Shown here: positions 5,584-24,876 of the stretch, piece by piece
How positions within the stretch are numbered: the first letter of the stretch is position 1
Layout: each line of letters starts with the position of its first letter
IMG/VR virus record: IMGVR_UViG_2531839640_000007
Strand: one strand, 5' to 3'
DNA length: 43,851 bases
Origin: a virus
Lineage: Duplodnaviria; Heunggongvirae; Uroviricota; Caudoviricetes
Notes under the pieces: model-generated
What the model was told of the DNA's origin: nothing
Databases searched by the model: none
What the model saw: only the letters and a program-made list of their open reading frames with translations
Program-made: the position numbers and the translations under genes

Positions 5584-6365
5584 GCTGCCACCTTCTGCTC
5601 AGTGGCTTTCTGTTTCAGGAATCCAAGAGCTTTCACTGCTTCGGCCTGTGTCAGTTCTGACGATGCGCGAATGTCGCGGCGAAATATCTGGGAACAGAGC
5701 GGCAATAAGTCGTCATCCCATGTTTTATCCAGGGCGATCAGCAGAGTGTTAATCTCCTGCATGGTTTCATCGTTAACCGGAGTGATGTCGCGTTCTGGCT
5801 GACGTTCTGCAGTGTATGCGGTATTTTCGACAATGCGCTCGGCTTCATCCTTGTCATAGATACCAGCAAATCCGAAGGCCAGACGGGCACACTGAATCAT
5901 GGCTTTATGCCGTAACATCCGTTTGGGATGCGACTGCCACGGCCCCGTGATTTCTCTGCCTTCGCGAGTTTTGAATGGTTCGCGGCGGCATTCATCCATC
6001 CATTCGGTAACGCAGATCGGATGATTACGGTCCTTGCGGTAAATCCGGCATGTACAGGATTCATTGTCCTGCTCAAAGTCCATGCCATCAAACTGCTGGT
6101 TTTCATTGATGATGCGGGACCAGCCATCAACGCCCACCACCGGAACGATGCCGTTCTGCTTATCAGGGAAGGCGTAAATTTCTTTCGTCCACGGATTAAG
6201 GCCGTACTGGTTGGCGACGATCAACAATGCGATGAACTGCGCATCGCTGGCATCACCTTTAAATGCCGTCTGGCGAAGAGTGGTGATCAGTTCCTGTGGG
6301 TCGACAGAATCCATGCCGACACGTTCAGCCAGCTTCCCTGCCAGCGTTGCGAGTGCTGTACTCAT
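5580..6365 (-). CDS. bet: Lambda Beta single-strand annealing protein (Red-beta), 261 aa
   Basis: Protein recognised as lambda Bet ([37 protein letters not shown]...). Confidence 0.97.
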
Positions 6366-6742: not shown

Positions 6743-7033
6743 TTAGTGATTCAGGCCGTTACCGCGTCCGTCGAGAAAAACTTCCACGAGCAAATCACGG
6801 GTATAAGTGCGCTCGATGCCGCGATGCAGATAAAGCCGTCCGCGTAAATTAGCTGATGCAGTCCAGGTACCATCTTTGTGTTTGACCAGCATTCCTGGCA
6901 TGACCGCACCTCGATTAACGGTCTGCGTTCCATAATGTTGATGAACCATAAAAACTCCTGCCCGTAAGCTGGGCTGCTGAACATATAGAGACTTCTGCGC
7001 GTATTCAGGCGGTGGATGGCCGCCGGTTGTCAT
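6743..7033 (-). CDS. Hypothetical protein, 96 aa, first ORF downstream of the inferred pL (position where N sits in lambda); no arginine-rich motif
   Basis: ORF in operon orientation between gam and the pL operator region; no family recognised. Confidence 0.4.
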
Positions 7034-18052: not shown

Positions 18053-18486
18053 GCAGAGTAACTGCGATTATCTTCGCTCTGGTTATCTGCATCATCGTCT
18101 GCCTGTCATGGGCTGTTAATCATTACCGTGATAACGCCATGACCTACAAAGAACAGCGCGACAAAGCCACATCCATCATCGCTGACATGCAGAAGCGTCA
18201 ACGTGACGTAGCAGAACTCGATGCCAGATATACAAAGGAACTTGCTGATGCTAACGCGACTATCGAAAGTCTCCGTGATGATGTTTCTGCTGGGCGTAAG
18301 CGGCTGCAAGTCGCCGCCTCCTGTGCAAAGTCAAAGACCGGAGCCAGCAGCATGGGCGATGGAGAAAGCCCAAGACTTACAGCAGATGCTGAACTCAATT
18401 ATTACCGTCTCCGAAGTGGAATCGACAGGATAACCGCGCAGGTTAACTACCTGCAGGAGTACATCAGGACGCAATGTCTGAAATAA
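18049..18486 (+). CDS. Rz: Rz i-spanin, about 145 aa
   Basis: N-terminal TM helix, coiled-coil body; overlaps endolysin stop; contains embedded Rz1. Confidence 0.85.
18248..18433 (+). CDS. Rz1: Rz1 o-spanin lipoprotein embedded in +1 frame within Rz, about 61 aa
   Basis: Lipobox LLGVSGC followed by Pro-rich segment; entirely within Rz in alternate frame. Confidence 0.8.
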
Positions 18487-18548
18487 TTTTTTTGCAAATC
18501 ACAAAGTCCATTTAATGAGCCTCGCGATGCGGGGCTTTTTTGCAATAA

Positions 18549-18575
18549 ATGCGTACCGCAACGCATGTTTTTTTT
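18549..18575 (+). terminator. Rho-independent terminator ATGCGT-accgca-ACGCAT then T9 after the lysis cassette
   Basis: Perfect 6-bp stem and 9-nt T-run. Confidence 0.7.
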
Positions 18576-18690
18576 ACACCGAACCTGCCCCTTTGGAATG
18601 GGCCTTTGAGGATACCAGTTAGTGCTGGCGAGCCTCGGTGGGCTGGTTTCCTGTGCGGCAAAGGTTCATTTCAAATGGTAGGTAAACGTT

Positions 18691-19212
18691 ATGAATATCG
18701 TGCCACTTAATTACAAAGGTGAAATTGTCAGTTTCAACACTGATGGTTGGATCAACGTCACAGGTGTTGCTGAGAGATTTGGGAAACGCATTGATAACTG
18801 GATGCGTTTGGCAGAAACGCTTGAATACGTTCGTGCTTTAGACGAAGCGTTGACCGGGAAAGAATCTCAAATTTTACATCCCTCACAATCGAGGTATGTA
18901 AAAACCAGCAAGGCACGAAAGGACAGGGGTGGTGGTACGTGGCTACATCCAAAACTTTCAGTTGCATTTGCCCGTTGGTGTGATGCTCGTTTTGCTGTGT
19001 GGTGCGACCTGCACATTGATAGTCTGCTTCGCGGTGAACTGACTGAGCAGCAGAAATATGAGCAAGCATGTCGCATTCGCGATGACCGGAAATCAAAAGC
19101 CAGCAATGGGGCAAGAGAGATGGCTCGCTGGCGATGGGATAAGCCGGTTATTGAAGCAAATGTTGAGTACTGGCGCGAGCAACTGCAGTTGACTCTCGAT
19201 ATCGCGTGCTGA
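18691..19212 (+). CDS. KilA-N domain protein, 173 aa
   Basis: N-terminal DGWINVTGVAERFGKRIDNWMRLAETLEYVRALDEAL resembles KilA-N/APSES fold; C-terminal half uncharacterised. Confidence 0.55.
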   Translation: MNIVPLNYKGEIVSFNTDGWINVTGVAERFGKRIDNWMRLAETLEYVRALDEALTGKESQILHPSQSRYVKTSKARKDRGGGTWLHPKLSVAFARWCDARFAVWCDLHIDSLLRGELTEQQKYEQACRIRDDRKSKASNGAREMARWRWDKPVIEANVEYWREQLQLTLDIAC

Positions 19213-19561
19213 TGGCAAACGCAAAACTGCGTTATCGAAAAAATCAAAGCATTACTAGAACTGAGCAACGGCTATCCATTACAAAGCCCATCTACGGGTG
19301 GGCTTGATAATGGCTTATACCCTGCACGGGATAACTTAACTGATATCCCTTTTAACGGATAAAGGCATTCAAGCCTGACACATCATGCGCTGTATCGTCG
19401 CCGTATTCCCGTATTAACAGAGACCGTAGCCCGACGGGGAACTCCTTCTGCGCGAGTGTGCGGGAATAATCAAAAACGATGCACACCGGGGTTACCGGGT
19501 ACACATATTTCATCATGCCAGCGAGTCCGGTTCTGGCACGGAAGAAACCGGACGTTATGAT

Positions 19562-19987
19562 TTAGTGCGGAAATATTTGTGTAGTGTTCTGAATGTTCTC
19601 AGTAAAGAGTAATGAATTATCAAAGGTATAGTAATACCTTTTGTTTTCGTGGATATTTGTAATCCATCTGAAAACCCCTGCTGTAGCAAGATTTTTCCTG
19701 TATTCGTAAAATGATAACTCTCCTGATTTGAATCCTTTTAAGGTGGCTTCTATAAGGCATTTATTTTTTGAAAATCTTACATTTACAACCTTACCCTGTC
19801 CTTTTATTAAAACCGTATTATCGTTTTCAAGAACAAGATGAATATTCTCTGTAGCTAAATAGTAAATGTAATGTGAGACATTGTGACGTTTTAGTTCAGA
19901 ATAAAACCAGTGATAGTTTAAATTATTTCGCACTTTATCGAATATTTGTTTAAAAATGGCAACCTGAGCCATTGTAGTACCTTCCAT
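19562..19987 (-). CDS. DUF1398-family protein (YbcV/YdfO-like), about 136-141 aa, AT-rich
   Basis: Sequence recalled as YbcV/YdfO family ([37 protein letters not shown]...); start codon uncertain. Confidence 0.65.
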
Positions 19988-20028
19988 GTGATATGAGGGG
20001 CGTAGTCTGCACGATTATCTAAATTGCT

Positions 20029-20262
20029 TCAATCTGGTCTGATCTGTTTTCTGAGCAATTCAGTAATGTCACTCTTTTCTTTGTTTGCTTCAGGAGAAAC
20101 TCTTTTTTCTGAGCACAGTCTCCGGCGGCAGGCTTCAATGACCCAGGCTGAGAAATTCCCGGACCCTTTTTGATCAAGAGCGATGTTAATTTGTTCAATC
20201 ATTTGGTTAGGAAAGCGGATGTTGCGGATTGTTGTTCTGCGGGTTCTGTTCTTCGTTGACAT
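20029..20262 (-). CDS. YlcI/YnfO-like small protein, 77 aa, with probable ribbon-helix-helix fold
   Basis: TIRNIRFPNQMIEQINIALDQKGSGNFSAWVIEACRRRL resembles RHH DNA-binding motif; upstream and co-oriented with DUF1398 gene. Confidence 0.55.
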   Translation of the reverse strand: MSTKNRTRRTTIRNIRFPNQMIEQINIALDQKGSGNFSAWVIEACRRRLCSEKRVSPEANKEKSDITELLRKQIRPD

Positions 20263-20449
20263 GAGGTTGTCCCGTATTTAGTGTCGCTGATTTGTATTGT
20301 CTGAAGTTGTTTTTACGTTAAGTTGATGCAGATCAATTAATATGATACCTGCGTCATAATTGATTATTTGACGTGGTTTGATGGCGTAGATGCACGTTGT
20401 GACATGCAGATGATAATTATTATCATTTTGCGGGTCCTTTCCGGCGATC

Positions 20450-20473
20450 CGACAGGTTACGGGGCGGCGACCT
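20450..20473. other. cos: cos site: lambda right-end sequence ...CGACAGGTTACG joined to 12-nt cohesive end GGGCGGCGACCT
   Basis: Exact lambda cohesive-end sequence at 20462-20473 followed by lambda left-arm leader to Nu1. Confidence 0.9.
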
Positions 20474-20650
20474 CGCGGGTTTTCGCTATTTATGAAAATT
20501 TTCCGGTTTAAGGCGTTTCCGTTCTTCTTCGTCATAACTTAATGTTTTTATTTAAAATACCCTCTGAAAAGAAAGGAAGCGACAGGTGCTGAAAGCGAGC
20601 TTTTTGGCCTCTGTCGTTTCCTTTCTCTGTTTTTGTCCGTGGAATGAACA

Positions 20651-21170
20651 ATGGAAGTCAACAAAAAGCAGCTGGCTGACATTTTCGGTGCGAGTATCCG
20701 TACCATTCAGAACTGGCAGGAACAGGGAATGCCCGTTCTGCGAGGCGGTGGCAAGGGTAATGAGGTGCTTTATGACTCTGCCGCCGTCATAAAATGGTAT
20801 GCCGAAAGGGATGCTGAAATTGAGAACGAAAAGCTGCGCCGGGAGGTTGAAGAACTGCGGCAGGCCAGCGAGGCAGATCTCCAGCCAGGAACTATTGAGT
20901 ACGAACGCCATCGACTTACGCGTGCGCAGGCCGACGCACAGGAACTGAAGAATGCCAGAGACTCCGCTGAAGTGGTGGAAACCGCATTCTGTACTTTCGT
21001 GTTGTCGCGGATCGCAGGTGAAATTGCCAGTATTCTCGACGGGCTCCCCCTGTCGGTGCAGCGGCGTTTTCCGGAACTGGAAAACCGACATGTTGATTTC
21101 CTGAAACGGGATATTATCAAAGCCATGAACAAAGCAGCCGCGCTGGATGAACTGATACCGGGGTTGCTGA

Positions 21171-21196
<26 letters not shown>
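20651..21196 (+). CDS. nu1: Terminase small subunit Nu1, 181 aa
   Basis: Protein recognised as lambda Nu1 (MEVNKKQLADIFGASIRTIQNWQEQGMPVLRGGGKGNEVLYD...). Confidence 0.97.

Positions 21197-24876
<3,680 letters not shown>

Follow-up and report, generated by a model that had tools for sequence, protein, structure and literature searches.

Prophage context and the encoded protein

The window, the whole 43,851-nt stretch of Caudoviricetes DNA that was analysed (IMG/VR record IMGVR_UViG_2531839640_000007), is a lambdoid prophage. The region of the gene studied here was 100% identical to phage ev099 and to the prophage of E. coli O104:H4 and E24377A, and in E24377A the prophage adjoins the bio operon. 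A Q gene of the quuD type (15082-15480) is followed by an ompC/nmpC-like porin gene on the minus strand (15669-16751), which separates Q from the holin gene, an arrangement also seen in DLP12, and by the S/R/Rz lysis genes (17295-18486). After a gap of 204 nt comes a plus-strand CDS for a 173-aa protein (18691..19212; RefSeq WP_001028465.1). Between 19212 and nu1, which lies downstream at 20651 on the strand of the gene, DUF1398/ybcV and then ylcI are carried by the minus strand. The location between the lysis cassette and cos/nu1 given in a preliminary description of this DNA was thereby confirmed. Two minus-strand ORFs, 18758-19114 and 18867-19268, were rejected as real genes, since homologues were found only for the plus-strand ORF.

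Lambda and DLP12 carry bor in the slot from Rz to cos, phi80 and BTP1 carry rha there, and in the window the slot is taken by the KilA-N gene. In its position, an additional gene separating two that are neighbours in related phages, it resembles a moron in the sense of Juhala and Hendrix, a class defined also by an upstream promoter and a downstream terminator of its own. Homology to HK544 and Emek ended at ~19363 of the window and homology to lambda restarted at ~19386, which places the end of the shared cassette DNA at ~19363-19386. A 54-aa minus-strand ORF (19352-19516) lies at the boundary where the lambda homology restarts; it is annotated as 'hypothetical' in PhiR49_1 and had no match in Pfam. 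The GC content of the KilA-N gene (0.45-0.51) was like that of the lysis cassette, and the minus-strand ybcV (DUF1398)/ylcI region at 19500-20100 was AT-rich (GC 0.31-0.36). Further downstream, the gene for the large terminase subunit, A, was split at ~22411 into two ORFs (21171-22436 and 22403-23095) by a 1-nt deletion in a G-run, with GGGG in the window and GGGGG in PhiR49_1. In E. coli O104:H4 2011C-3493, gene A is annotated as 'frameshifted' and rusA is frameshifted as well. Given the split gene A, the prophage may be defective.

The gene was already known, as RefSeq names the product "KilA-N domain-containing protein", and GenBank PV340568 names a sister allele "KilA-N-ORF11CD3". The KilA-N segment that had been proposed for the N-terminus was recovered by a Pfam search, in which PF04383 matched residues 7-114 (18709..19032, plus strand) with 77.5 bits against a gathering score of 23.8 (E=8.2e-22) and with 103 of the 107 profile positions covered. 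This domain carries the invariant motif GGTWxHPK...FARW...VWxD, the structure model gave it an alpha+beta APSES-like fold, and the top match in a structural search was a DNA-binding domain. The C-terminal half, previously described as uncharacterised, turned out to be a named domain, ORF11CD3, and the full-length protein is 44% identical to ORF11 of Pseudomonas phage D3. The domain spans residues ~116-169 (19036..19197, plus strand) and was delimited from the structure model, Pfam, hhalign and family conservation. In the model it forms two long antiparallel helices (116-137 and 141-169, pLDDT ~90), and this helical hairpin is a probable oligomerisation or partner-binding module. PF10549 (ORF11CD3) matched the protein weakly, at 16.2 bits with a cut-off of 25; the sister allele scored 47-50 bits, and precomputed PF10549.16 matches are listed for proteins that are 99-100% identical to the 173-aa protein. 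Its C-terminal ~55 residues alone matched the Rha-like PHROG 518.

Pfam returned neither Phage_pRha (PF09669) at E<=10 nor any ANT, AntA or P22_AR_N/C domain in the protein. A PDB sequence search gave no match, an NCBIfam search gave nothing meaningful, and neither a nuclease motif nor a match to a nuclease fold was found. The protein, already annotated, belongs to the Bro network, whose phage regulators swap domains among themselves.

Identical copies of the protein are encoded by phages ev099, HK544 (HK97-like) and Emek, and the gene was found in 155 of 5426 complete E. coli genomes, on the chromosome in every case. SPN3UB and the P22-like Salmonella phage SE1 encode a relative with 85% identity. 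Another KilA-N-ORF11CD3 allele, 165 aa long and preceded by the same leader as described below, occurs in PhiR49_1 and in an O157:H7 prophage with a Stx-phage-like late region. A scan of viral contigs gave only close relatives (86-100% identity), and the diversity of the family was taken from genome contigs, where spurious antisense ORFs among the neighbours in GC-rich loci were removed by GC3 before Pfam was applied. Across the family, proteins of 165-180 aa with ~50% identity keep both halves, and conservation reaches the very C-terminus.

In the closer clade the gene was always co-oriented within the late operon, at junctions that differ from phage to phage. HK544, SPN3UB and SE1 carry the homologue after Rz, D3 has it between head-completion and tail genes, and PS-1 has it between head genes. 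In several prophages of Pseudomonas and Halomonas it precedes J or the major tail/tail-tube gene, and in one further locus (L110) it lies a few hundred bases upstream of the large terminase gene. The distant members (47-55% identity) were found in early regions, either after cI/cro, after replication genes, coupled to Rha or in integrase-DUF927 islands. Thus, a late position is not universal across the family, as distant members are early or in P4-like islands. Three of these loci (L121, L122, L125) had the order S24 repressor, small ORF, KilA-N-ORF11CD3, two others (L118, L126) had an integrase ... KilA-N-ORF11CD3 ... DUF927 order as in P4- or PICI-like islands, and in another two (L099, L107) a Rha gene overlapped the start of the KilA-N gene. 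In all seven the gene was translationally coupled to the preceding gene and had no leader.

One of the closest named systems is D3 ORF11, after which the Pfam domain is called. It has the same two domains, with 44% identity over 98% of the protein (residues 2-171) and a gap-free alignment of the C-terminal halves. Like the window gene, the D3 gene is embedded in the late operon in the same orientation as its neighbours and stands behind a structured leader; in D3 a terminator follows it. It differs in lying between head-completion and tail genes, not after Rz, and in having a leader that resembles int-alpA instead of the enterobacterial hairpin. The head of HK97 gp73 and its HK022 counterpart is 47% identical, and that of the KilA-N-P63C protein of phage Oslo 41%. 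HK97-like phages carry their KilA-N-P63C gene in the same post-lysis slot, and the Oslo-type genes have the same leader as the window gene; however, the HK97, HK022 and Oslo proteins have a P63C domain in place of ORF11CD3 and are ~240-255 aa long. The fungal APSES domain (Mbp1) and KilA of phage P1 have the fold alone in common with the window protein, at ~11% identity, and their biology is unrelated.

Terminators and the leader hairpin

The terminators that had been placed upstream of the gene are real and consist of two hairpins after Rz. The intrinsic terminator T1 (18518..18541, plus strand), read from the sequence and folded, lies directly after Rz and has the form GAGCCTCGC-GAT-GCGGGGCT followed by six T. 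The phi80 record lists the T1 hairpin (GAGCCTCGCGATGCGGGGCTTTTTT) as a terminator upstream of rha, and the same hairpin precedes the gene in BTP1, SE1 and HK544 as well; T1 thus travels with the cassette. Nearly the same hairpin is located upstream of the homologue in Pseudomonas phage PS-1. A terminator scan revealed the second terminator-like hairpin, T2 (18549..18575, plus strand), ATGCGT-ACCGCA-ACGCAT followed by T8. In relatives T2 is a GC-rich hairpin with no T-run; alignments showed that the hairpin is maintained in SE1, SPN3UB and BTP1 despite a changed sequence, with the T-run absent there. The 3′ end of the cassette (19218..19313, plus strand) is formed by hairpins at 19218-19233 and 19276-19313 (z=-4.4), which were stable but had weak T tracts, whereas the Pseudomonas relatives had clear strong terminators at this position. 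Our crude terminator finder under-called known hairpins and was therefore unused as evidence of absence. A repeat search for operators in and around the gene gave just short repeats at chance level besides the hairpins.

Between the terminators and the start codon, MFE folds and a covariance model revealed a structured 5′ leader, a hairpin of ~100 nt (18584..18683, plus strand). In its basal helix, GGTAGGT (18677-18683), which holds the Shine-Dalgarno sequence (SD), is paired with CCTGCC (18584-18589), and a conserved 3′ internal loop reads TTTCCTGTGCGG. Single-sequence folding was applied to 17 divergent leaders, drawn from Escherichia, Salmonella, Pantoea, Enterobacter, Halomonas, Halopseudomonas and Cobetia, and in 16 of them the hairpin was of this form, the SD being part of the basal stem (z from -1.7 to -6.0). 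A covariance model, R1, built from nine leaders with the window leader left out, matched the window at 18588-18693 with 58.6 bits (E=1.5e-11), scored 113 bits on the phi80 leader and found 31 others besides the window leader, each ending on a start codon. Over 31 distinct leader sequences, 92.5% of the cells were paired, 24 of 28 pairs had changes on both sides and 193 cells were compensatory; these counts come from a model-fitted alignment that is biased towards the structure. In slid controls, with the partner shifted by 1-3 columns, at most 50% of the cells were paired and at most 29 were compensatory, and none of 500 shuffles reached the observed values. The single-sequence folds are independent of R1. 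RNAalifold on a plain MAFFT alignment of the 17 leaders gave no pairs, as MAFFT mis-registered the arms, and single folds and the covariance-model alignment were used instead. The window leader had no match in Rfam 15, and int-alpA (RF02996) did not match at E<=10 in the window at 18480-18720. The leader is thus a hairpin that pairs with the SD, has covariation support and is absent from Rfam 15.

The same leader was found upstream of genes for Rha, KilA-N-ORF11CD3 and KilA-N-P63C proteins, of free-standing HNH_3(+AP2) genes and of a phi80 gene similar to N15 gp59. Copies were located in phi80 (L153, 5675-5778), BTP1 (L152, 38609-38715) and 29 further loci. In complete E. coli genomes it was present in 954 of 5426 (~18%), including O157:H7 Stx-type prophages, and it was either unannotated or lay inside over-long Rha CDS calls. 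The HNH_3(+AP2) endonuclease genes behind a leader copy lay in the same prophage regions (L054, 2290-2879; L114, 5115-5759; L077, 6118-6225), and in L114 an ATT occupies the position aligned to the start codon. In E. coli RM10410 (L156, 2001-3293), Rz is followed by a leader remnant, then by a gene of the sce7726 family and, convergent with it, one for a 'beta family protein', in place of a Bro-network gene; the slot may here contain other cargo.

A practical consequence of the leader is the mis-annotation of rha start codons. The annotated starts fall within the leader hairpin, at 5740 compared with 5776 in phi80 (L153) and at 38644 compared with 38713 in BTP1 (L152). R1 ends on the downstream ATG, which gives proteins of 172 aa for phi80 and 178 aa for BTP1. 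Judged from these sequences, many rha CDSs, listed in RefSeq as 'Rha family transcriptional regulator', are probably called too long.

In the Pseudomonas homologues the leaders resemble int-alpA (RF02996), with scores of 32.4 bits for L011 and 23.6 bits for D3, both under the gathering score of 35.8. The int-alpA element is like the window leader in that a stem-enclosed element lies just 5′ of the SD, and unlike it in that the window leader is a single long hairpin that takes in the SD. Such int-alpA-like leaders were seen at 6901-6977 of D3 (L004) and 5908-5986 of L011, and upstream of the gene in L095, L098, L100, L102, L109 and L116. Within them, a loop segment reading TCGCTCATC or TCGTTCATC is the complement of the bases that immediately precede the SD, with covariation between the two (C:G versus T:A). 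L011 also had a near-consensus promoter at ~5730-5880 (TTGACA, 17 nt, TATTTT), with two strong terminators ~50-110 nt on; this promoter and these terminators upstream of the cassette could be a small RNA gene.

Transcription and the likeness to rha

The preliminary description had taken the gene to follow a strong terminator of the late operon and, for this reason, to be probably independently expressed. The terminators after Rz cannot be the end of the late operon, because the KilA-N gene is followed on its own strand by nu1, A and every head and tail gene. The late genes of lambdoid phages are transcribed from pR′ by a Q-modified polymerase that reads through terminators. A scan of 17000-21300 for consensus sites found no sigma-70-like promoter between the terminators and the ATG (18576-18690), and the SD is buried in the leader hairpin.

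RNA-seq of a BTP1 lysogen (PMC7067206, Table S5) covers a sister cassette, rha, with the same first terminator and leader. Its TPM was 1.7-36 over 17 conditions and tracked those of R and Rz (r=0.94-0.95, median ratio 0.97-1.11). In BTP1 the second hairpin is without the T8 run seen in the window, and we infer the efficiency of read-through in the window from this cassette. The neighbouring accessory gene pid was expressed ~25-fold above rha (rha at ~4% of pid), and the authors of the transcriptome classed rha as 'lytic', in contrast to pid (PMC7067206). The BTP1 cassette thus showed no sign of independent transcription in the lysogen and no drop across the terminator. We infer that the KilA-N gene has no promoter of its own and is transcribed late by read-through, and the earlier view of independent expression is probably wrong. 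That description had also named an outcome that would speak against it, namely membership of the late operon together with structural homology to a virion or lysis protein; the gene does belong with the late operon, and the protein had no structural similarity to virion or lysis proteins.

Rha of phi80 and P22 (orf201; Phage_pRha) is encoded in the same slot, after Rz and before cos/terminase, on the same strand, behind the terminator and an SD-sequestering leader, and its size from the corrected starts (172-178 aa) is similar to that of the 173-aa protein. The phi80 genome runs Rz, terminator, rha, and its record bears the note 'DNA synthesis inhibition in IHF- hosts'; in the P22-like phage BTP1 rha follows Rz. 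The BTP1 rha leader is the same as the window leader over ~18577-18673 with one mismatch, and divergence begins just before the SD. The BTP1 protein consists of Phage_pRha and ORF11CD3 (E=7.8e-28), and hhalign of the profile of our family against its C-terminus gave E=1.6e-4; the C-terminus of phi80 Rha resembled the family only weakly (hhalign probability 6.7%). The window gene itself lies after Rz, behind the rha terminator and leader, and so occupies the rha locus. Since slot, terminator, leader and C-terminal domain are common to the window gene and the P22-type rha, the N-terminal DNA-binding head is the only difference, Phage_pRha in Rha and KilA-N here. The likeness to Rha would accordingly be one of position, leader and P22-type C-terminal domain, with no part played by the DNA-binding head. 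The window gene can be regarded as an rha allele; few other members of the Bro network have a genetic phenotype. According to PMC4936722, P22 rha belongs to the late operon and impairs lytic growth when IHF is lacking, and this IHF-dependent inhibition of growth is known for Rha only, in phi80 and P22.

Candidate roles and the leader as a module

The cassette is made up of one or two terminators, a leader of ~100 nt, a small two-domain protein predicted to bind DNA, and 3′ hairpins. Our preferred reading, held with moderate confidence, is that the gene is a KilA-N-headed form of the lambdoid rha cassette in the slot between Rz and cos, transcribed late by Q read-through, throttled by its leader and encoding a DNA-binding protein that acts late. 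RNA polymerase modified by Q would ignore both terminators between the lysis genes and nu1/A and would transcribe the gene late. The leader would then throttle translation until the hairpin is opened or cut, for example by RNase III or by a phage or host factor. The protein would bind DNA through KilA-N, pair up or recruit a partner through ORF11CD3, and, late in infection, act on DNA replication or transcription. As with Rha, an excess of the protein would inhibit phage DNA synthesis, and such harm would explain the tight control.

Three other roles were weighed against this reading. The protein might bind the repressor of its own prophage, of a co-resident prophage or of a satellite, so that late expression would cross-induce or manipulate other mobile elements. 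This role as an antirepressor or inducer draws on the company that the domains keep, since KilA-N, Rha and ORF11CD3 belong to a domain-swapping 'Bro network' with Ant-type antirepressors, a network that fills the regulatory zone of PICI/P4-like satellites (PMC10111431). Distant homologues occur right after cI/cro (L121, L122, L125) and in integrase-DUF927 primase islands (L118, L126), KilA-N genes stand beside Bro-N or Ant genes in L009 and phage Oslo, and phi80 Rha has itself been termed an antirepressor (PMC4936722). However, the protein lacks an ANT, AntA or P22_AR domain, its N-domain is a DNA-binding fold, no repressor partner could be identified, and the late timing would be odd for a self-antirepressor; we therefore regard this role as rather unlikely. 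We consider it quite improbable that the gene is a defence moron expressed in the lysogen, a terminator-insulated cassette that would protect the host by abortive infection or exclusion in the manner of BstA, as the link of KilA-N domains to abortive infection in the preliminary description might suggest. BstA, the abortive-infection protein of BTP1, is encoded by a prophage and starts with a KilA-N-like domain (PMC8585504), yet Pfam KilA-N did not match it at E<=0.01. Comparison of our family profile with BTP1 BstA by hhalign gave a probability of 0.7%, with no detectable homology, and BstA is longer (306-307 aa against 173 aa), has another C-terminal domain, is co-transcribed with cI and is high in lysogens. 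PADLOC returned just a weak match to the candidate system PDC-S22 (E=1e-5), confined to the KilA-N region. On these two comparisons the link to abortive infection was not supported. The slot does house the lysogenic-conversion gene bor in lambda and DLP12 and the sce7726-family gene pair in L156, and hairpins are found on both sides of the cassette. Against this, the gene is not beside cI, no promoter was found and the SD is sequestered; the rha gene that follows the same leader is classed 'lytic', its TPM in the lysogen being low and parallel to that of the lysis genes; and the GC content is like that of the lysis cassette and unlike that of the AT-rich ybcV region.

The mobility of the cassette could also be read as selfish. 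In this case a unit of terminator, leader, gene and terminator would spread on its own account, with the protein, whose fold family has been argued to be nuclease-related, promoting the spread and the SD-hiding hairpin limiting the harm to the carrier phage. In T4, the RBS of free-standing homing endonuclease genes is sequestered by a hairpin, and here the same leader stands upstream of HNH_3(+AP2) genes (L054, L114, L077). Heads and tails are swapped behind a constant leader, close homologues sit at many different late-operon gene junctions in unrelated phages, and PS-1 of Pseudomonas and the window have nearly the same upstream terminator. Yet with no nuclease motif or fold found and a DNA-binding domain as the top structural match, and with ordinary illegitimate and homologous recombination among lambdoid phages able to account for the mosaicism, homing seems very improbable to us.

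What the analysis adds is the equation of the gene with rha and a previously unannotated leader RNA. The gene itself is ordinary, and the leader is the more interesting by-product. We tentatively propose, as a possibility that falls short of probable, that leader and terminator(s) form an undescribed, portable cis-regulatory RNA module that hides the RBS of mobile accessory genes of the late region (Rha, KilA-N-ORF11CD3, KilA-N-P63C and HNH(+AP2)), so that potentially self-harmful DNA-binding or DNA-cutting proteins on an abundant late transcript would stay silent until a specific cue. If this proposal is true, the Rha phenotype known for decades, the failure of phi80 and P22 to grow on IHF mutants, could stem from a loss of leader control. 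More generally, the leader suggests how phages tolerate accessory genes for DNA-binding proteins and nucleases within their late operons.

A scan of the window for the IHF consensus gave 46 matches against 34 expected, which is not significant. One perfect match, AATCAAAGCATTA at 19242-19254, lies between the two 3′ hairpins, 30 nt past the stop codon and with an A-tract before it, and is conserved in SE1. This site is of note as a lead, since rha is said to be regulated by IHF.
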